This document shows positions 5,454 to 19,634 of a stretch of DNA of 42,237 nt, piece after piece. The notes under the pieces were generated by a model, which saw only the letters and a list, made by a program, of their open reading frames with translations, had not been told where the DNA came from and made no database searches. Numbering within the stretch: position 1 is the stretch's first letter; each line of letters starts with the position of its first letter. The DNA is taken from NCBI GenBank assembly GCA_036170245.1, contig JAVHOV010000002.1, positions 1 through 42,237 of the forward strand, written 5' to 3'. The translations under genes were made by a program, and so were the position numbers. The stretch is from an archaeon (GTDB lineage: Archaea > Iainarchaeota > Iainarchaeia > Iainarchaeales > JAAZKV01).

Positions 5454-5458
5454 AATTA

Positions 5459-5604
5459 TACCCCGACCGGGATTCGGACCCGGGTTACCGCCTTATTCCA
5501 TTTCGCAAATAATCTGTCGAGTGTATGAACGCGAAGACAGGTTTTTCGCGAGCCTTTGAAAGGCTCTGAGAAGGCGGTGTGCTTGACCGCTGCACTATCG
5601 GGGC
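5459..5604 (-). tRNA. tRNA-Glu(CTC) with 73-nt intron at canonical 37/38 position (intron 5494..5566)
   Basis: Reverse complement folds as GCCCCGA/TCGGGGT acceptor, GTGC/GCAC D stem, CCGCC-TT-CTC-A|intron|A-GGCGG anticodon arm, CCGGG-TCCGAAT-CCCGG T arm. Intron end GGAA pairs with TTCT (positions 32-35), followed by a TA|A bulge. Confidence 0.9.
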
Positions 5605-5702
5605 AATATGCCTAAAGAAATGCTTTGCAATTCTCAACTATGTGCTATAATTAATCTCTTCCCTGATTAGGTTTATATTGCTTGCTTGCATTCATTATTT
5701 GC

Positions 5703-6365
5703 ATGAAAATAAAAGCTGTTTTAATAGATTTGGATGGTACTCTAATTGATTCTATCCCTTTGATTATGAAGAGTGATTTAGCCGCAATTAAGGAATTTGG
5801 TTTTAGCATTTCCCACCAGAAATTAAGGGAAGTAAGTAATTGGCACTCAAGGGACATCGCTTATTATTTAATGGATTCAAAGAAAACAAATTTTTGTTTA
5901 GAAGATTTTATTGCGTATAGAAGAAGTTATTTTGAGAAATTATTGAAGCAACATAAAGCAAATGGCTTGTGGTTTAAGGGTGCAAAGAATTTCTTAAAAG
6001 ATTTGAGCGAAATTTTTCCTTTAGCTTTGGTCACCGGTTCTCGTCATCGTTTCATTAACCAAGTTTTTGATAAAAAAACCAAAAATTATTTCAAATCACT
6101 CATTACTAGTGATGAGGTTTTGCACAAAAAACCGGATATTGAACCTTTGAATATTGCAATTAGAAAATTGAGAGTAAAAAAGGAAGAAATTGTTTTTATT
6201 GGGGACTCAGTAATGGATGGTTTAATGTGCCAGAGGTTAGGAGTAAAGTTTATTGCAAAAATTGGCGGGATTAGTACTGAAAATCAGTTGAGAAAATTCA
6301 ATCCAGTTTTTGTTGCTAAAGATTTTAGTGAGATTACTTCTTTTTTGGCTTTGATTTCAAAATAA
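5703..6365 (+). CDS. HAD-superfamily phosphatase (phosphoglycolate phosphatase/PpaX-like)
   Basis: Motif I DLDGTLIDS, motif II VTGS, motif III KP, motif IV FIGDS. Start taken at ATG 5703 (MKIKAV). Confidence 0.88.
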   Translation: MKIKAVLIDLDGTLIDSIPLIMKSDLAAIKEFGFSISHQKLREVSNWHSRDIAYYLMDSKKTNFCLEDFIAYRRSYFEKLLKQHKANGLWFKGAKNFLKDLSEIFPLALVTGSRHRFINQVFDKKTKNYFKSLITSDEVLHKKPDIEPLNIAIRKLRVKKEEIVFIGDSVMDGLMCQRLGVKFIAKIGGISTENQLRKFNPVFVAKDFSEITSFLALISK

Positions 6366-6947
6366 TCATTTTTTAATTAAGTTTTCATCAATTAGAGATA
6401 ATTTTTCTTCTAAAAGAGAAAGATTGATTACAGTGTCTTTGCATCCATCTTTTACGAGCATCACTACTTGAGGAACTATTTTTACTTGTTTTGTTAATTC
6501 AAAAGCCATTATCGCTTCGTGAAAACAAGATACCCCTATAGCTGCTTTTGGTTTATATTTGTCAAGCATTTTTTTAACCATGCTTCCACCAGGAACCATA
6601 AATATTTGTGTATACCCTAATCCTTCGGCAAGTTTTACAGCTTTACTCACATCACATCCTCCACAGTGCTGGCAATGCAACCCTTCATCATCGCTAATTG
6701 CTTGGCAGGTTTTGGAGTTTCTTGAACAATGCGGCAGAAACAGTGCTCTTTCATTAAAAGGAATTTTTTTGAATTCTGGCTCATATACTGCGTTTCTAAG
6801 TTCTACGTGAGCAAATTGAATTAAAGCGTCGCTTAATCCCAAAGATTTTCCAATTGATTCAGCTGCACTTGCTGCATTGAAGTGTGCTCCAGCATCAACC
6901 GTTTTTCCTACAGCAGTTTTTATTTTTTGATAAATACTTTCAGCCAT
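6366..6947 (-). CDS. DUF116 family protein
   Basis: 'RALFLPHCSRNSKTCQA...HCQHCGGC...PGGS...IGVSC...GCKDT' Cys pattern characteristic of DUF116. Start taken at MAESI. Confidence 0.8.
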   Translation of the reverse strand: MAESIYQKIKTAVGKTVDAGAHFNAASAAESIGKSLGLSDALIQFAHVELRNAVYEPEFKKIPFNERALFLPHCSRNSKTCQAISDDEGLHCQHCGGCDVSKAVKLAEGLGYTQIFMVPGGSMVKKMLDKYKPKAAIGVSCFHEAIMAFELTKQVKIVPQVVMLVKDGCKDTVINLSLLEEKLSLIDENLIKK

Positions 6948-7000
6948 TACATAGAAAGAATAAAACAATTAATTAAAAAAGGAATTTACGAGCAGAAAAA

Positions 7001-8578
7001 TTACTCTGTTTTAATTATTTTTACCCAGCCGTGGTTTGCGTTAACTTCAACCATCATCCCGTCTTTTAGAACTTTTGTAGCAATCTTTGTTCCAATAATG
7101 CAAGGTATTCCTAGTTCTCTTGAAACAATTGCAGCGTGACAAGTAATTCCACCTTCGTCAGTTACTATTGCACTAGCTTTTTTCATAGCAGGAATATAAT
7201 CAGGTCGAGTCATTACTGCAACTAAAACCTCCCCTTGTTCTATTTTTGAAATTTCGGTTACACTCTTAAGTATTCTTACCTTTCCAATTGCTTTTCCTAC
7301 TGAAGCAGTAAGTCCTCTAAAATCATCCACTTGTCCTAATTCTTTACTTCCTAGAACCCTCTCTTTTACTTTGTCAGCATCATTTCCAGCCAAAGCTTCC
7401 ATTCCTGTTTTATCCCAATAATAAACTCCGTTTTGTTTTCTTGCAAGCATTTCTTCTTTTTTTAATTGCCCGTCAAAAACCATTTTTACTTCTCTTTGAG
7501 TAATGTATTTTAGCGAATCTAAACTAATTTTTGTTCTTTTAGAAATTTCATTAAGAAGTTTTGAAAGGTAATGCGTTGTTAAAAAAGAGGATCTTTTTCT
7601 TTCATCCTGCCAATAAGTAAAGTCCTCAGATATTTCAATCAATCCCATAATTTCCTGATTTATTTTCATTATTTTCATTAATTTTTCTTTTTTGCTTTTA
7701 TTTTCTTTGGGAGTGTTTGATAACCTCTTTATTTCAAGAGCAATATTCAGTTTTGAATTAAGTATTTTCTTTAATTCTTCAATAAAATAATCATTTCCCA
7801 AAATATTATCATCAACGTAGTTGTTTCTTGTCCAGTAATACTTTTTTTGGTGTTTTGAAATTAACTTACCCTCTTTTGTTCCTTTTATTTTTTTATCTAT
7901 TTCATAAGCAGTGAGTTTTTCAAATAGATTAGCAGATTTTGTTTTCTTTATTTTTAAAGCGAGTTTTAATAGTTCTACTTCTGCTTGATTAATGAATGAT
8001 AAATGAATCGGAGCAGTGAGTATTGAGAAAGCTTCAGTGAAACGCATTTTGTCTTTTACACTTGATAATTCAAAAACTTCCTTTATTTTTCCTGCAATAA
8101 GTTCATCAGACCCTAGTGCAAATCCGTCAATAATTGAACTTGAACTTCCTCTGTTTAAAATTGCTCTAAAGCACTTATCATGATAATCTAAAAAACTTTC
8201 ATTAGTTAGTTTTGTCAAATCTTTTTTTTCAAGCTCTTTACACATTTTTTCATATTGCGCTTCATCTTTTGCCCAAAGCTTCATTAATTTCTTTCCATAA
8301 CTTTTATCTTTTTTCAAATTAGTAAGAACAGTTTGAGTTACTTTGTTCATATCCTCGTGCAGTATGTACCAATCAGCTTTTCCATTTTCAAGAAAGCAAT
8401 AATGTACAGAAAAATCAAGTCCTTGCTTTCTTTCTTGATGAACTATTATCTCAGCTTCTCCGACCCAATGCATAAAGTAAGGAGCCCCATCAAACCTTTG
8501 GTGGTACCATTCTTTACCAGTCCATTTTGAAAGGTTATGCATTAAGTGTCCTTTAATGTACTGCATTTTTTCTTCCAT
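7001..8578 (-). CDS. PEP-utilizing enzyme mobile (phospho-His swivel) domain protein with long N-terminal region
   Basis: C-terminal 'VLVAVMTRPDY...AIVTDEGGITCHAAIVSRELGIPCIIG...ATKVLKDG' with the catalytic His. No ATP-grasp or PEP-binding barrel recognised. Confidence 0.85.
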   Translation of the reverse strand: MEEKMQYIKGHLMHNLSKWTGKEWYHQRFDGAPYFMHWVGEAEIIVHQERKQGLDFSVHYCFLENGKADWYILHEDMNKVTQTVLTNLKKDKSYGKKLMKLWAKDEAQYEKMCKELEKKDLTKLTNESFLDYHDKCFRAILNRGSSSSIIDGFALGSDELIAGKIKEVFELSSVKDKMRFTEAFSILTAPIHLSFINQAEVELLKLALKIKKTKSANLFEKLTAYEIDKKIKGTKEGKLISKHQKKYYWTRNNYVDDNILGNDYFIEELKKILNSKLNIALEIKRLSNTPKENKSKKEKLMKIMKINQEIMGLIEISEDFTYWQDERKRSSFLTTHYLSKLLNEISKRTKISLDSLKYITQREVKMVFDGQLKKEEMLARKQNGVYYWDKTGMEALAGNDADKVKERVLGSKELGQVDDFRGLTASVGKAIGKVRILKSVTEISKIEQGEVLVAVMTRPDYIPAMKKASAIVTDEGGITCHAAIVSRELGIPCIIGTKIATKVLKDGMMVEVNANHGWVKIIKTE

Positions 8579-8643
8579 TCATACCCACCAACACTTATTT
8601 TTTACTCTTAATAATACTGCACCAACCCAACTAATTAAATATG

Positions 8644-8665
8644 TGTAGTATTATATATTACTACA
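8644..8665. promoter_or_regulatory. Inverted repeat TGTAGTA-N8-TACTACA, candidate TrmB-family operator
   Basis: Near-perfect 22-bp palindrome overlapping the ATG (8665) of the TrmB-family gene, inside a divergent promoter. Confidence 0.5.
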
Positions 8666-9399
8666 TGGATATACAAATAGAAAAAGTACTCACCGAAATC
8701 GGTTTTTCTAACGGCGAAGTAAAAACTTACATCGCACTCCTTGACCTAAAAGAAGCAGGGGCAAGTGAAATATCAAAGAAATCAGGGATTCACAGAGTCA
8801 ACATTTATGATATTTTAAAGAAATTAGAAGAGAAAGGGTTAGTTAGTGAAATAATAAAAGATTCAAAGAAAATTTATCTCCCATCAAACCCTGATCATTT
8901 GGTTGAAGTAATTAATCAAAAAAAAGAATCACTCCTTGAAGTTCTCCCTTTAATTAAAAAGAAATTAACTGATTCAAAAAAAGAACAACAAGTATTTTAC
9001 TTAACAGGAGTGCAAGGAATTTTACAATCATATTACATGATGCTAGCAGAAGGAGAAGAAGTTTTGGGCTTAGGTGGCTCAGGTTACACAAGAAAGCTCT
9101 TAGGATACAAGCACGATTTGTGGAACAAGGTTCGCTTGGAAAGAAAAATAAAAATGAGGACAATCTACTATGAATTCACCCGAAACGATAAAGAAAAATC
9201 TTGGGTTGATAAGACAGTTCAAATAAGGTATTTGCCAAATGAAAAACAAACTAAATGCATGATTGACATTTGCGGAGATTTGGTTGTGAATTTAATTCCA
9301 ATTGAAAACAATGTTCAAGTAGTTGTAATAAAAAATTTGGAACTAGCACAAACCTACAAAATGTTCTTTGATACTATTTGGGGCACGGCTAAAAAATAA
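8665..9399 (+). CDS. TrmB-family HTH transcriptional regulator
   Basis: 'LTEIGFSNGEVKTYIALL...ASEISKKSGIHRVNIYDILKKLEEKGLVSE' TrmB wHTH plus a C-terminal effector domain. Start taken at MDIQ. Confidence 0.88.
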   Translation: MDIQIEKVLTEIGFSNGEVKTYIALLDLKEAGASEISKKSGIHRVNIYDILKKLEEKGLVSEIIKDSKKIYLPSNPDHLVEVINQKKESLLEVLPLIKKKLTDSKKEQQVFYLTGVQGILQSYYMMLAEGEEVLGLGGSGYTRKLLGYKHDLWNKVRLERKIKMRTIYYEFTRNDKEKSWVDKTVQIRYLPNEKQTKCMIDICGDLVVNLIPIENNVQVVVIKNLELAQTYKMFFDTIWGTAKK

Positions 9400-9400
9400 G

Positions 9401-9473
9401 TGCCACTGGGCGGACTCGCACCGCCGACCTCCTGATTATGAGTCAGGCGATCTAACTGCTGATCTACAGTGGC
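9401..9473 (-). tRNA. tRNA-Met(CAT), probably elongator; no intron
   Basis: GCCACTG/CAGTGGC acceptor, GATC/GATC D stem, CCTGA-CT-CAT-AA-TCAGG anticodon arm, GGCGG-TGCGAGT-CCGCC T arm. Lacks initiator features (A1:U72, three G:C pairs). Ile2 is not fully excluded. Confidence 0.85.
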
Positions 9474-9474
9474 T

Positions 9475-9548
9475 GAGCCTTGTTAAGGTTCGCGAAAGAA
9501 TTTATCATTTGCGTTAGCAAATGATAGAAAACTAACTCAAACCGGCTC
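9475..9548. repeat. Tandem-hairpin element in the tRNA-Met 5' leader
   Basis: GAGCCTT-gtt-AAGGTTC (9475-9491) and TATCATTTGC-gtta-GCAAATGATA (9503-9526). The first 23 nt are 19/23 identical to the start of the tRNA-Glu intron. Confidence 0.6.
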
Positions 9549-9587
9549 TAAATAAAACCCCCTTGAAAAGGTTTTAATACTTGCTTT

Positions 9588-11017: not shown

Positions 11018-12100
11018 TTAGTCTTTTCTCCAATTAACTTTTACATCATCAGTACGCTGTTTTGGAAATATACTAGATTTATTCAAGGATGTTTTATAAC
11101 CATTAGAATACATCAACAAACCGAGCCAACCTATTTGGGCGCCATTGTCAACCATTACAGAATTAGGAGGAACAAATAAAGTTGCATTTCTCTCTTCACA
11201 CATTTTTTTCACCATTTGCTGTAATGCAAGAGAACAACCAACTCCACCACCCAAAACTACTTCGCTTTTTTCAGTGTGAGCCAGAGCCCTTTCAGTTACT
11301 TCAGTTAGCATTGCAAATGCATTATGAAGTGCAGAGTAAACCAAATCTTCTTGTTTTATTTTTCCTGCTTTGACTTGAGGAATTTTATTTGTTGCAGCAG
11401 TAAGTAATCCTGAGAAAGCAAGATCCATTCCCTTTACAGTATAAGGGAGGTCAATTAACTCTCGTGGTGAAGCCGTTGCTTCACTACGCCCCGCAAAAGC
11501 AGATGCTTTTGCAAGGGTTCCCTTAAAATACATTTTATCAAGCGCAGGCCCAGCAGGAAATCCTAAATCAAGCTCTCTACCAAAAGTGTCCAAGAAATTG
11601 CCAATTCCTGTATCAAGTGTTTCTCCAAATACCCTATAATAAGAATTTTCGTAGCAAATGATTTGTGTATTTGCTCCGCTCGCATAAAGCATTATTGGAT
11701 CAGTTGCATTACACAATTTTCTTCCGATTTCAATGTGCGCTACGCAATGGTTTACCCCAATTAAGGGAACATTTGCCTTGAGTGCAACTTGTCTTGCAGT
11801 AACCGCCCCAACTCTTAAAGCATTTCCTATCCCAGGACCTTGGGAAAAACTGACTAAATCGATTTCACTCAAATCTACTTTAGCTTTTTTGAGTGCAGAT
11901 TTAATAACAATTGGAGAACAAGTGTAGTGATGTTCAGCTAGTTCTCGGGGAATCATTCCTCCAGTTGTAGTAGTATAAGAATCTTTTTCATTTGAAAGAA
12001 TTTTACACTTTGACTTTTTGTAATCCTTCTTATCAATATCACTCTCAACTATACTTGCACCAAATGTGTGCGCAGTTGATTCAATTCCAAGCGTTATCAT
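11018..12100 (-). CDS. kae1: tRNA N6-threonylcarbamoyladenosine synthase Kae1 (KEOPS), with an ~18-aa in-frame insertion
   Basis: LGIESTAHT, SQGPG, VNHCVAHIEIG, SGANTQ, GETLD, LPYTVKGMD, GGV, DNGAQI, RTDDV motifs. Not fused to Bud32. Confidence 0.96.
   Translation of the reverse strand: MITLGIESTAHTFGASIVESDIDKKDYKKSKCKILSNEKDSYTTTTGGMIPRELAEHHYTCSPIVIKSALKKAKVDLSEIDLVSFSQGPGIGNALRVGAVTARQVALKANVPLIGVNHCVAHIEIGRKLCNATDPIMLYASGANTQIICYENSYYRVFGETLDTGIGNFLDTFGRELDLGFPAGPALDKMYFKGTLAKASAFAGRSEATASPRELIDLPYTVKGMDLAFSGLLTAATNKIPQVKAGKIKQEDLVYSALHNAFAMLTEVTERALAHTEKSEVVLGGGVGCSLALQQMVKKMCEERNATLFVPPNSVMVDNGAQIGWLGLLMYSNGYKTSLNKSSIFPKQRTDDVKVNWRKD
11463..11524. repeat. Palindromic element inserted in-frame in kae1
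   Basis: CGTGGTGAAGC-cgtt-GCTTCACTACG (11463-11488), GCAAAAGCA-ga-TGCTTTTGC (11493-11512) and AAGGG-tt-CCCTT (11513-11524). Coincides with the extra peptide TLAKASAFAGRSEATASP. Confidence 0.8.
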
Positions 12101-13288: not shown

Positions 13289-13486
13289 TTACCTGCTTAA
13301 TCTCAAAGCAAACTTTCCTCTTCTTGTGATACCCATTTTCTTTGCTATATCAGATTGTTCGGGGTTCATTATTATTACATATCCTCTCCAGAATGTTGTG
13401 AATGTTTTTTCATTACAGTTAGGGCAAACGTCCCCTTCTTCTACAACGTATCTGCAATTTCTACAAGCTTTTTCTTTTAGCACCAT
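13289..13486 (-). CDS. spt4: Transcription elongation factor Spt4 (RpoE'')
   Basis: ACRNC..CPNC..WRGYVIIMNPEQSDIAKKMGI...GKFAL. Confidence 0.95.
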   Translation of the reverse strand: MVLKEKACRNCRYVVEEGDVCPNCNEKTFTTFWRGYVIIMNPEQSDIAKKMGITRRGKFALRLSR

Positions 13487-14693: not shown

Positions 14694-16220
14694 TTAAATT
14701 ATTTCTCCGTATGCAACAAGTCTCCACTGACCGTTGATGTTTTTACTTAGAGCAACTTTTTCTCCTTTCTCTGAAATTGATTCATTTTTCAAATTAATAG
14801 TAATTGTTTTGGAATCAACTTTTGTAACAAATCCAACTGTAGTATTTGTTCCAATTGTTACAACTAGTGGTTCAGTTACTTTTATTATTGTTTTTTGTGA
14901 CAAAATATCTGCAGCTTCATTACGCTTAGCAATAACATTTGTTTTTGCTTGGTCTTTTGTATTTTGCTCAAGCATTCTTTCAAACATTGTATAATTTAAT
15001 TTTAATTCTTTTACTGGAGAAGGAATAGTTCCCTGTTTTGCAGCAATTTGTCCTCGCAGTTGATCGTTTTGTGCAACACTTGGGTCAAGGTCAGTTCCAA
15101 GAGCAATTAACCCACCAGGGAATGCTTCAGTTACTAATCCATTTGAAGTAGAAATACTCATTACTTTGAATAGCGTTTTTTCTTTTAATCCAGGATTCAA
15201 TTCAATCGTGTCCCCGATTTTTACTGCACCTTGCGTTATACTTCCGCCAATTACCGCACCCTTCAAATCTTTTGGAAGAGTTCCTGGCTTATTAATATCA
15301 AAACTTCTTGCAATAAACATCTTCAAGGGTTTTGTTGTATCAAAGTGAGGAGTTGGAATGTGTGTTTCTATTGCTTCAATCAGCGAATCAATATTTACAT
15401 CAAATGTTGCAGCTGTTGGAATTATTGGTGCATCAGTGTATCCGTATGAATCCAAAAAGTTTCGTATTGCTTTGTAATTAACCATTGCTTGTTCTTTTGA
15501 AATTAAATCAATTTTGTTTTGTGCTACTACTACTTTATTTACGCCGGCAAATTTTAGTGCCATTAAGTGTTCAATAGTTCGTGGTTGAGGGCATGGCTCG
15601 TTTGCAGCAATTACTAGAACCGCTCCGTTCATTAATGCAGCTCCGCTTAACATTGTAGTCATTAGTGTTTCGTGCCCAGGCGCGTCAACAAAACTTACAT
15701 TTCTCTTTGAAATTATTTCTGCTTTTTGTCCTTGGTATTCAGATTTATTAGAATAAACTATTCCGTTTGCTGTTTTTAATTTATAAAAAGTTACATCAGC
15801 ATAACCTAGTCTAATTGAAATTCCTCTCTTCATTTCTTCACTATGGGTATCACACCATTTTCCGCTAATTGCACGAGTAAGAGAAGTTTTACCATGATCA
15901 ACGTGTCCAATCATTCCGATATTTACTTCAGATTGGTGGATTAAATTTTCTTTTGGAGTTTTTGCTTCATGAGTAGTTTCTTTTTTATGCTCTTTATGTT
16001 CATGTTCATGAACAGCTTCTTTTACTTCCTGAACCACTTCTTTTTTGTGCACATGGCTTTCCACATGAACTTCTTTTGCTTCTGGGGAAGAAGAAGGCAA
16101 AATTTCTTTTGCCTCTTTCAATTTTTTAGCCCTTGGCTTTTTTTCTTTTAGTGGAATTGCTTTAGTGGCTACTTTATCATCAACGTTAATTTCTTCCGTT
16201 GCTTTTTTCTTAGCCACCAT
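14694..16220 (-). CDS. eif2g: Translation initiation factor aIF2 gamma subunit, with long charged N-terminal extension and internal insertion
   Basis: QSEVNIGMIGHVDHGKT, RGISIRLGYAD, DAPGHE, QNKID, RSFDINKPG, WRLVAYG. Confidence 0.96.
   Translation of the reverse strand: MVAKKKATEEINVDDKVATKAIPLKEKKPRAKKLKEAKEILPSSSPEAKEVHVESHVHKKEVVQEVKEAVHEHEHKEHKKETTHEAKTPKENLIHQSEVNIGMIGHVDHGKTSLTRAISGKWCDTHSEEMKRGISIRLGYADVTFYKLKTANGIVYSNKSEYQGQKAEIISKRNVSFVDAPGHETLMTTMLSGAALMNGAVLVIAANEPCPQPRTIEHLMALKFAGVNKVVVAQNKIDLISKEQAMVNYKAIRNFLDSYGYTDAPIIPTAATFDVNIDSLIEAIETHIPTPHFDTTKPLKMFIARSFDINKPGTLPKDLKGAVIGGSITQGAVKIGDTIELNPGLKEKTLFKVMSISTSNGLVTEAFPGGLIALGTDLDPSVAQNDQLRGQIAAKQGTIPSPVKELKLNYTMFERMLEQNTKDQAKTNVIAKRNEAADILSQKTIIKVTEPLVVTIGTNTTVGFVTKVDSKTITINLKNESISEKGEKVALSKNINGQWRLVAYGEII
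14901..14966. repeat. Palindromic element inserted in-frame in aIF2gamma (66 bp = 22 codons)
   Basis: Bounded by inverted CAAAATA (14901-14907) and TATTTTG (14960-14966). Core 14914-14948 is 26/35 identical to the kae1 element and keeps the GCAA..CA/TG..TTGC hairpin. Confidence 0.7.
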
Positions 16221-16252
16221 CAAAATCCACCTTTTTACAACACTAAATTATT

Positions 16253-18569: not shown

Positions 18570-19022
18570 TTATTTCCTAATTGCTTCAAGTGCAATTTCT
18601 TTCACACTTTTGTGCAAAAAATCTTTGTGATTTTTTCCTGTTAAAAAATAATTTTGATCCTCTAAATCATTTTCAAATATTTCTTTTTTTTCAAAAAATC
18701 TATTTATTTCATATTTTGCTGTTTCTTCATTTAGTGAAACATGAATATCATCACTAAATTCTTTTTTTAAACGCTGGCCAATATTAATTGCATTTTCTCC
18801 TTGCGCTATTACTAATACACAAGGAATTTTTTCTGCTGCTTTCATTTCAACTATTTTTTCCTCGCTTTTTTCTTCCAATATTTTTCTCTCAAACGAATGA
18901 ATATCAAAATTCATTGTTTTTACTGCAACTATTGTAATATTTTCATTTTCAATTTTTGTGATTATTAAACCAAGTGCTTTTTTTGCGATTGCACTTGGCT
19001 TGATAATAATTAATGTTTTCAA
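18570..19022 (-). CDS. Degenerate nucleoside-diphosphate-kinase-like protein
   Basis: TLIIIKPSA...LG.II.KIE...GENAI...IHVS..EETAKYEINRFF mirrors the Ndk N- and C-termini but lacks the Kpn-loop/GTIRGD segment. Confidence 0.7.
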   Translation of the reverse strand: MKTLIIIKPSAIAKKALGLIITKIENENITIVAVKTMNFDIHSFERKILEEKSEEKIVEMKAAEKIPCVLVIAQGENAINIGQRLKKEFSDDIHVSLNEETAKYEINRFFEKKEIFENDLEDQNYFLTGKNHKDFLHKSVKEIALEAIRK

Positions 19023-19570
19023 ATTTTCTCGCCTTTTAATGGTGTTTTGCCTTTTTGTGGATTAGTTTTATTCACTTTGTAATGCAAAATATGAACATCA
19101 TTCACGTTAGAGTAATTGTGTAACTCTTCAGGAATAAACCACAATGCAATTTCATTTTTTGCTTCATCTCTGTTTCCTGAAGCATGCACTACATTTCTTA
19201 CTGCTTGGTTTACTTCATCCGAATAAGCAATACTTACATGCGCATAGTCTCCTCGAATGGTTCCTGGCATTGCACTTTTTGGTTCTGTTGTTCCGCATAA
19301 TTTTCTTACAACTTCAACAGCATCTATTCCTTCAAGAACTACTGCCACAACTGGGCCCATTGTAATCATTTCCATTAATGCATCAAATACTTTCTGTCCG
19401 TGTCTTGCTTTAATATCAGAATAATGTTTTTCTGCAAACATTTCATTTATCCAAGTCATTTTTAGTCCGACTATTTTTAGTCCAACATTTTCAAATCTTT
19501 TTAAAATTTCTCCGGTAAGTCCTCGTTGTACTCCATCAGGTTTTACTAAAACTAATGTTCTTTCAATCAT
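19019..19570 (-). CDS. ndk: Nucleoside diphosphate kinase
   Basis: ERTLVLVKPDGVQRGL, PGTIRGDY, NVVHAS (catalytic His), EIALWF. Confidence 0.97.
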   Translation of the reverse strand: MIERTLVLVKPDGVQRGLTGEILKRFENVGLKIVGLKMTWINEMFAEKHYSDIKARHGQKVFDALMEMITMGPVVAVVLEGIDAVEVVRKLCGTTEPKSAMPGTIRGDYAHVSIAYSDEVNQAVRNVVHASGNRDEAKNEIALWFIPEELHNYSNVNDVHILHYKVNKTNPQKGKTPLKGEKI

Positions 19571-19634
19571 TAACCTCACCAATCCCCTTTTTCCAACTTT
19601 TCTTCTTTTTTAAAAAAAATTAAAGGAAACAAGC

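Follow-up and report, generated by a model that had tools for sequence, protein, structure and literature searches.

Small folded elements shared by tRNA introns, tRNA flanks, RNase P RNA and gene ends in a lineage of DPANN-type archaea

We found that two genes in one stretch of archaeal DNA carry related copies of a small folded element. The stretch (hereafter the window) comprises 42,237 nucleotides (nt) of contig JAVHOV010000002.1 from assembly GCA_036170245.1, order Iainarchaeales. One copy forms the intron of its transfer RNA (tRNA) gene tRNA-Glu(CTC), and a second version adjoins the 5′ end of its tRNA-Met gene. The element recurs in the same genome and in related ones with a conserved fold, in many copies, with patchy presence at orthologous sites, near-identity between different tRNA isotypes, and duplications of target sequence. 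The copies probably constitute one lineage-specific family of small folded, modular elements that have been copied and inserted, and in which the first hairpin provides the helix at the splice site. Copies have spread among many tRNA genes, and also to tRNA leaders and trailers, the P12 arm of ribonuclease P (RNase P) RNA, and the first or last few dozen bases of protein genes.

The window lies on contig C2 of genome G000, which is of DPANN type (867 kb in 43 contigs, 32.6% G+C, 86% complete). Its relatives are labelled G001 to G021; the genus comprises 22 genomes including G000, and f1 denotes the window's own taxonomic family. We called tRNA genes with ARAGORN allowing introns (-i), used Rfam for tRNA-Met, and compared the folds of intron and flank with those of shuffled sequence. 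The 7-base-pair (bp) first hairpin of the element is termed hp1, its second hairpin hp2, and hp1 with GCGA directly 3′ of it hp1-GCGA. Sub1, Sub2 and Sub3 are sub-types of the element, and R1 is a covariance model built from the Sub1 alignment. The features at the two window loci are:

5458..5605, minus strand: tRNA-Glu(CTC) gene; its intron of 73 nt follows the anticodon at the canonical position (ARAGORN -i).
5495..5567, minus strand: the Glu intron, a Sub2-type element predicted to fold into hp1, a GCGAA/UUUGC helix closing round the hairpin CUGUC-UUCGC..CUC-GACAG, and a tail ending in GGAAU.
5550..5566, minus strand: hp1 of the Glu intron, GAGCCUU-UCA-AAGGCUC, directly after the 5′ splice site.
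9400..9473, minus strand: tRNA-Met(CAT) gene without an intron (ARAGORN; Rfam RF00005, 68.7 bits).
9475..9545, plus strand: element of Sub1 type, antisense to tRNA-Met, with the tRNA 5′ end on one side and a promoter-like box on the other (R1 and alignment with relatives); its 3′ limit is approximate and was set by comparison with G011.
9475..9491, plus strand: hp1 of the flank copy, GAGCCTT-GTT-AAGGTTC, with one G.T pair, followed by GCGAAAG at 9492–9498.
9501..9528, plus strand: hp2 of the flank copy, a predicted 12-bp hairpin TTTATCATTTGC / GCAAATGATAGA, whose base TT..AGA is invariant in the family.
9565..9584, minus strand: conserved box GAAAAGGTTTTAATACTTGC, read from its position and from relatives as the putative B recognition element (BRE)/TATA promoter of tRNA-Met.

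An initial annotation of the window had noted a hairpin common to the start of the tRNA-Glu intron and the tRNA-Met flank, and this is borne out: GAGCCTTTCAAAGGCTCGCGAAA (5566–5544, minus strand) and GAGCCTTGTTAAGGTTCGCGAAA (9475–9497, plus strand) agree at 19 of 23 positions. Three of the mismatches fall in the loop and the fourth converts a G:C into a G.T pair, just as described there. The placement of the second copy is likewise confirmed: it starts at 9475 on the strand opposite to the tRNA, with a single base between it and the tRNA 5′ end at 9473. A scan of both strands of the window at 19/23 or better returned only the query itself and the 9475–9497 copy, and ten mononucleotide shuffles of the window gave no match at this level. 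Compared with shuffled sequence, the tRNA-Glu intron folds with a z-score of −2.6, the flank element with −4.1 in sense and −5.2 in antisense, and the whole tRNA-Glu pre-tRNA with −4.3. The flank copy lies outside any tRNA and is thus not an intron. A hidden or permuted tRNA on the plus strand at 9475 was considered and rejected; neither ARAGORN with introns nor Rfam found one.

The two window copies represent different sub-families and have only the first hairpin and GCGAAA in common. The further segment of the type ATTTGCG..AAATG, which the annotation had thought shared, is a likeness and not homology: in the predicted folds, UUUGC of the intron pairs back to GCGAA, whereas AUUUGC of the flank copy makes up the 5′ side of its second hairpin. 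BLAST places the flank copy nearest to the tRNA-Gly(GCC) intron (81% identity over 58 nt, E 3e-8). When the whole of G000 was searched with R1, the flank copy scored 72.9 bits (E 3e-14) and the Glu intron 24.2 bits (E 0.008).

Further copies, for which a genome search had been proposed, are present. The pattern CCTT-N3-5-AAGG-N2-3-GCGA matched seven times in G000, and its reversed control once. The matches are the Glu intron, the tRNA-Met flank, the introns of tRNA-Gln(TTG) (140 nt) and tRNA-Gly(GCC) (87 nt), a site between tRNA-Cys and tRNA-Gly(CCC) on contig C4, a site inside the RNase P RNA on C26, and one on C40; the Glu, Gln and Gly(GCC) introns thus all carry hp1-GCGA. BLAST, the covariance model and inspection added four more: a site beyond the window (C2:51457-51570), the tRNA-Gly(CCC) intron, whose first hairpin is a variant, and sites upstream of tRNA-Gly(TCC) and of tRNA-Trp. 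G000 therefore holds at least 11 copies, distributed over four tRNA introns, four tRNA 5′ flanks, P12 of the RNase P RNA, the 5′ end of a thiolase gene and the 3′ end of the S10 gene. R1 by itself finds seven copies in G000 at E up to 0.01. The view that a small hairpin element sits in the processed-away parts of pre-tRNAs holds for introns, 5′ flanks and 3′ flanks; the copies in P12, at the thiolase 5′ end and at the S10 3′ end extend beyond it. Nothing points to a direction from leader to intron. A proposed kinship with inserts in the kae1 and aIF2gamma genes found no support in the only check made, an R1 search, which gave no match there at E up to 1. In the window, the aIF2-gamma gene (14694–16223, minus strand) encodes a Lys/Glu/His-rich N-terminal extension of about 95 amino acids (aa) before the GTPase domain, and the Kae1 gene (11018–12100, minus strand) encodes an Ala/Ser-rich stretch, GTLAKASAFAGRSEATASPR. 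Separately, between tRNA-Cys and the Sub3 element on C4 (7445–7566, minus strand), two tandem units of about 64 nt lie against the antisense 5′ end of tRNA-Cys, and each contains two hairpins, TTAATTGC..GCAATTAA and GGGTACC..GGTAGCCC.

The elements are structured, modular and about 55–140 nt in size. In hp1, the CCUU/AAGG core is conserved and the outer pairs covary. The GCGAA that directly follows is the 5′ strand of a second helix, which encloses one to three more hairpins, so that hp1 and the closing GCGAA helix (GCGAA/UUUGC near the 3′ end in the Glu intron) bring the ends of the element together. All three sub-types start with hp1 and then GCGAA. Sub1, which includes the tRNA-Met flank copy, has the form hp1-GCGAAAGAAUUU-hp2-AGAAAAC; Sub2, which includes the Glu intron, the form hp1-GCGAAA-[stem-UUC-short stem-UC-stem]; and Sub3 consists of Sub1 with two additional hairpins. 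Among 24 Sub1 copies from about ten species, 8 of the 13 predicted pairs show compensatory changes (in hp2, 4–11 double changes per pair), and T..AAGG..GCGAA..TT..AGA is invariant. Among 17 Sub2 copies the figure is 8 of 15 predicted pairs, with GCGAAA, TTCGC and CTC invariant. A strand test on wobble pairs gave a mixed result, with 6 G.U and 0 A.C of 69 at the outer pairs of hp1 vs 4 G.U and 14 A.C in hp2; four rows of this test were mis-parsed by the script. A kink-turn/L7Ae motif was rejected, because the would-be G.A bases where hp1 begins vary in concert as Watson-Crick pairs (GAG/CTC, GAA/TTC, GCG/CGC, CAG/CTG). Across the window, Rfam at its gathering threshold reports tRNA-Met alone. 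At E up to 1, no Rfam family matches the element at six copy-bearing loci, where, apart from tRNA and RNase P RNA, the search returned just four matches below threshold (two to tmRNA, one to alpha_tmRNA and one to mir-3121; 13.6–21.3 bits vs gathering thresholds of 47–108), which we take as chance.

The hp1-GCGA pattern occurs in all 21 other genomes of the genus, with 1–8 copies in each, and R1 matches 13 of the 16 other f1 genomes. Among 151 genomes of the order, R1 matches with E < 1e-6 are confined to f1. An exact 18-base motif, sought in one genome per species over 185,579 species, was found in 28 stretches, of which 22 are archaeal and six lie in assorted bacteria; by our own arithmetic the six are about what chance would give. 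In viral contigs the exact motif was found 0 times.

Introns of the same tRNA differ widely between related species. The tRNA-Glu(CTC) gene, several of whose homologues in relatives share a contig with tRNA-Met as in the window, carries the element in 7 of 16 species, an unrelated intron family in two, a 21-nt intron in one and no intron in six. Empty or otherwise filled sites in sister genomes, which the annotation had proposed to look for, thus exist, and the same holds beside tRNA-Met (see below). The elements in tRNA-Glu(CTC) comprise Sub1, Sub2 and Sub3-like types: Sub2 in G000, G011, G003 and G012, Sub2 with another first hairpin in G015, Sub1 in G016, and a 136-nt form in G009. Over all species, element-bearing introns also occur in Gly(GCC/TCC/CCC), Trp, Leu(CAA), Arg(CCT), Asp, Ser(TGA), Glu(TTC) and Gln tRNAs. 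Their hosts are Gly(GCC), Gly(TCC), Trp and Leu(CAA) in G009, Arg(CCT) and Gly(CCC) in G013, Trp, Gly(TCC) and a Ser(TGA)-like tRNA in G016, and Asp and Glu(TTC) in G020. According to ARAGORN with introns, the Trp, Arg(CCT), Asp, Leu(CAA) and Gly(TCC) tRNAs of G000 have no intron. In G009, the Gly(GCC) and Trp introns are identical at 98 of 111 positions (88%) and their exons at 51 of 98; the intron differences are compensatory in both hairpins. A second, unrelated intron family, with GCCCTTTTCTTT..AAAGAAAAGTG and a CCCAAAAGAAA hairpin, is present in tRNA-Ser(GGA) of G000 (C11:17112-17183) and in tRNA-Glu(CTC) of G008 and G019, and is likewise common to different tRNA types in different species.

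The Glu intron and 23 unique module-type introns of relatives all occupy the canonical position right after the anticodon (ARAGORN). Because each intron copy begins with hp1, we infer that hp1 supplies the helix on the intron side of the bulge-helix-bulge splice motif. In a hand-drawn version of this motif for Glu, UUCU (32–35) and GGAA form the central helix, with UA^A as the 3′-side bulge and CA^G as the 5′-side bulge, followed by hp1; about 45 nt separate hp1 from GGAA, and the minimum-energy fold shows a 3-bp variant. G000 encodes both splicing enzymes, with a tRNA_int_endo match of 83.8 bits in a 188-aa frame and an RtcB match of 487.9 bits. A complementarity test run with the same aligner as the exon comparison below gave no signal and is too blunt for a 4-bp helix. 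In the repeat-flanked thiolase and RNase P copies, inspection by hand alone showed no convincing bulge-helix-bulge motif.

Beside tRNA-Met, the element occupies a place of variable length. A box of the type TTTAATA[CA] is found in 16 of 19 related tRNA-Met loci and is invariant in a five-species alignment, and a comparable box lies 41 nt upstream of tRNA-Glu; from these, the box at 9565–9584 appears to be the tRNA-Met promoter. The distance from its TATA-like part to tRNA-Met is 41 nt in G011, 98 nt in the window, about 155 nt in G016 and more than 300 nt in G008. The insert at the element's place measures about 14 nt in G011, 71 nt in the window and more than 300 nt in G008, and is of different sub-types over the species. 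Because the Sub1 copy sits between promoter and tRNA-Met, its antisense strand would be expected to form a leader of about 65 nt, plausibly removed by RNase P. The module has the orientation of tRNA-Met itself in G003 and G008, where it follows a 21–26 nt duplicate of the tRNA-Met 5′ end. Spacing at the tRNA is tight: in six of seven antisense flank copies, the first base of hp1 is at most 2 nt from tRNA position 1 (tRNA-Met, Cys twice, Trp, Ser and Pro).

The C26 copy of G000 sits in the P12 arm of the RNase P RNA. We parsed 17 RNase P RNAs of the genus and found that P12 is minimal (13–21 nt) in ten species, measures 61–67 nt and holds an hp1-GCGA..UUCGC module in four (G000, G008, G012 and G001), and measures 68–129 nt with a two-hairpin module in three. 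P12 of G001 equals the minimal arm of G007 plus a 52-nt insert. Owing to such P12 inserts, and in G012, G021 and G016 also to inserts after P12, the RNase P RNA ranges from about 245 to 415 nt within the genus. Another insert flanked by a duplicated gene end occurs 3′ of the RNase P RNA of G000 (C26, about 13300–13440, minus strand): the last ~28 nt of the RNA and its flank (GGCTTACTAATCACTGCTAATACTTATT) are present twice, on either side of an insert of about 57 nt with a different hairpin (GGATTGCAT..ATGCAATC).

Outside introns, some copies have left footprints in their targets. We compared 69 pattern-defined copies with 400 random controls and found flanking direct repeats scoring 15.5–45 at ten of the 69; the 99th percentile of the controls is 13.5. 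The repeats comprise 15–72 nt of the target, one intact gene end remains, and the gap to hp1 is 0–8 nt. In the repeat-flanked cases inspected by eye, the orphan repeat adjoins hp1 and the intact gene lies at the tail of the element. The thiolase copy on C40, for example, is flanked by a repeat of the first 44 nt of the gene with three differences, all synonymous. The thiolase start of G008 has the same arrangement, and there both repeat copies are identical over 39 nt, though the species differ at seven synonymous sites. Other cases are a repeat of the last 36 nt of the S10 gene in G016, repeats of 45 and 72 nt at the gene end facing a Ham1-family gene, and a repeat of about 21 nt of the tRNA-Met 3′ end in G013. 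In tRNA-Tyr of G005 and tRNA-Met of G003 and G008, a 5′ tRNA fragment lies upstream of the intact gene with the insert between the two. Intron copies have no flanking direct repeats. At the thiolase gene of G000, the duplicated start and the element together make up a 36-codon upstream frame (C40:19646-19752, minus strand), which terminates in an ATGA that overlaps the true start codon and is likewise open in G008.

If the copies have spread by insertion, this would take place at the DNA level, because many copies are antisense to the adjoining gene, and the repeats of 15–72 nt of target would leave one gene end intact. Where the element lies in a tRNA, the splicing endonuclease and the RtcB ligase would then remove it. 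A more specific proposal, which we put forward tentatively and hold to be possible though somewhat doubtful, is that the family represents non-autonomous mobile elements of a new kind, from which archaeal tRNA introns are made, each a self-folding cassette in which hp1 supplies the splice helix. An insert in the anticodon loop would on this proposal be spliceable at once, and other inserts would survive where the RNA is trimmed (leaders and trailers), where they do no harm (RNase P P12), or where the gene end is restored by a long target duplication.

Several observations weigh against copying and insertion. No Y1 transposase (PF01797) or TnpB (PF07282) match was found in the 86%-complete G000, with control genomes matched, and none to Cas1 in the same genome. 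RVT_1 matches occur in only 6 of the 22 genomes of the genus, whereas the element pattern occurs in all 22. Both reverse transcriptase genes of G000 belong to diversity-generating retroelements (C16:18763-22476 and C30:1-3384), each cassette comprising an approximately 430-aa reverse transcriptase, a protein resembling Avd and a target gene with an Lcl_C domain. Flanking repeats that vary from 15 to 72 nt fit no transposase that we know of. The intron tails bear no trace of a duplicated exon (score 4.74 against their own exon vs 4.77 against the exons of other tRNAs, 23 introns), and the canonical splice motif differs from the minimum-energy fold. Contigs from four DNA runs of one groundwater study, which may be the source of the window, showed no filled or empty variant at either window site, and contigs cannot show rare variants. 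The hairpin 1–2 nt from the tRNA 5′ end with which the insert opens in 15 of 18 complete tRNA-Met loci, its stem covarying between species, could reflect a host function instead of selfish spread. A protein might bind the invariant single-stranded motifs, and the similarity of the copies could come partly from gene conversion and not from new insertion. On the side of mechanism, a step from repeat-flanked insert to intron by loss of the second repeat was rejected, since the tails are no closer to their own 5′ exon. One joint in the groundwater contigs, from 5488 to 5578, proved to be an intron-less tRNA-Glu(TTC) paralogue with different flanks.

Some of these points would also follow if hp1-GCGA were a host-beneficial RNA motif under selection, such as a processing-protein site or a folding aid, with the likeness of its copies due to function and occasional gene conversion. 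Besides the hairpin adjoining tRNA-Met, this account would cover the invariance of the T..AAGG..GCGAA..TT..AGA bases in 24 copies from at least ten species while the stems covary, the identical module in P12 of three species, the strand asymmetry of the hp1 outer pairs, and the thiolase-copy element, which differs less between G000 and G008 than do the synonymous sites of neighbouring codons. We nevertheless consider it unlikely, as orthologous sites are patchily occupied (six of 16 tRNA-Glu(CTC) genes lack an intron and 10 of 17 RNase P RNAs have a minimal P12), copies face both ways relative to the tRNA, and some protein genes have an antisense copy, with target duplication, at their 3′ end. 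The kink-turn reading also fails, its would-be G.A bases pairing as Watson-Crick, and no Rfam family matches at E up to 1. A host function of the module would in any case be compatible with its mobility.

Insertion could alternatively proceed through RNA, if excised intron RNA were copied by a resident reverse transcriptase and inserted by target priming, as for short interspersed nuclear elements (SINEs). The variable length of the flanking repeats, the sharp 5′ end of the element with a 3′ end about 10–15 nt beyond hp2, and the tail turned toward the intact gene in all repeat-flanked cases inspected by eye would suit such a process, and G000 does have two reverse transcriptase genes. We judge this distinctly improbable, given that both enzymes sit in standard diversity-generating cassettes with Avd and an Lcl_C target gene, that RVT_1 is found in 6 of 22 genus genomes and G009 has eight copies of the element without any, and that the element has no A-tail.

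Very improbable, in our estimate, is that the copies and repeats are scars of tyrosine-integrase elements, with the repeats as attachment-site (att) duplications and the hairpins as leftover arm sequences. Direct repeats of tRNA or gene ends with one intact copy do resemble integrase att sites, a route of this kind for tRNA disruption was proposed in the passages cited here from Sugahara et al. 2012 (PMC3293823), and G000 has three integrase-family genes, one of them directly downstream of tRNA-Ser(GGA). None of the three adjoins a module. The inserts measure just 37–250 nt and invariably belong to one element family, the exact motif is in no viral contig, and the intron copies at position 37/38 and the RNase P P12 inserts would be left unexplained. 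The gene at tRNA-Ser(GGA) is a 463-aa tyrosine-integrase-family frame (C11:17315-18700, plus strand) that starts about 85 nt after the tRNA, as in an integrated element; it has no adjoining module, the assembly shows no second att copy, and the contig ends before any second attachment site.

Chance resemblance, or convergence from the need for a hairpin at the splice site, is scarcely credible. In its favour, a helix has to follow the 5′ splice site in any long archaeal intron, and the second, unrelated intron family of these genomes also opens with a hairpin. The data contradict it, with no match in shuffled sequence, an E of 3e-8 between flank copy and tRNA-Gly(GCC) intron, R1 scores of up to 73 bits, and copies outside introns.

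Apart from the element, two adjacent overlapping frames of the window (18570–19582, minus strand) match nucleoside diphosphate kinase, one over the full domain and the other over its first 84 positions only.

The arrival of archaeal tRNA introns is an open question on which the family bears. In about 20 close small genomes, one family is seen as an intron in more than ten tRNA types, in leaders and trailers, in RNase P RNA, as a gene-end insert, and beside empty orthologous sites, and with several states side by side, gain, loss and the insertion step become directly comparable. Should the self-folding cassette proposal be right, intron gain would have a concrete route that can be traced, and its step at the DNA level would have left footprints not reported before. 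Judging by titles and abstracts, literature on tRNA introns, DPANN, mobile introns, bulge-helix-bulge motifs and target site duplication does not describe the element family.

The closest known case is the tRNA intron 'transposition' families of Thermoproteales (Fujishima et al. 2010, as presented in the cited passages of the review PMC4090602), whose mechanism is given there as unknown and thought to act at the DNA level. A 2026 preprint on Asgard archaea (bioRxiv 10.64898/2026.10.13.758758), in which the same families are a positive control, found no general route by which tRNA introns arrive. As far as these passages describe the Thermoproteales families, they and ours alike have near-identical introns in different isotypes of one genome (here 88%, Gly and Trp of G009) and a patchy presence among related species. 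Similar introns with unrelated exons are a feature of both, here with 98/111 against 51/98 in G009. The present family differs in its small-genome DPANN-type host, in the canonical position of all its introns and in its defined conserved fold. It also has copies outside introns with long target duplications and copies inside RNase P RNA, which are absent from the passages on Thermoproteales. The mobile-element integration model, in the cited part of Sugahara et al. 2012 (PMC3293823), involves a 1.8-kb insert encoding a recombinase. A tRNA 5′ fragment upstream of the intact gene is common to that model and to tRNA-Met of G003 and G008 and tRNA-Tyr of G005; the inserts here differ in being 37–250 nt long, non-coding and of the same family as the introns.

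Miniature inverted-repeat transposable elements (MITEs) and the repetitive extragenic palindromes and palindrome-associated transposable elements (REP/PATE) of the IS200/IS605 Y1 type are, like the present family, short, non-coding, multi-copy and hairpin-bearing, and occur in both orientations. MITE and REP/PATE target duplications measure 0–10 nt, and those found here vary between 15 and 72 nt. The element further differs from these in that its ends are hp1 and an A-rich tail, with no terminal inverted repeats, in that no Y1 transposase or TnpB was found in G000, and in its strong tie to tRNA genes and RNase P RNA. Introns can also encode functional small RNAs, as with the box C/D RNA in the archaeal tRNA-Trp intron. 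Such RNAs resemble the element in being structured and in occurring both within tRNA introns and free-standing; the element, in contrast, has no C/D boxes, kink-turn or Rfam match, and its flank copies are often antisense to the sole evident promoter. New relative to what is known are the well-defined fold, the occurrence of free-standing copies that carry long duplications of the target, and the inserts in RNase P RNA.

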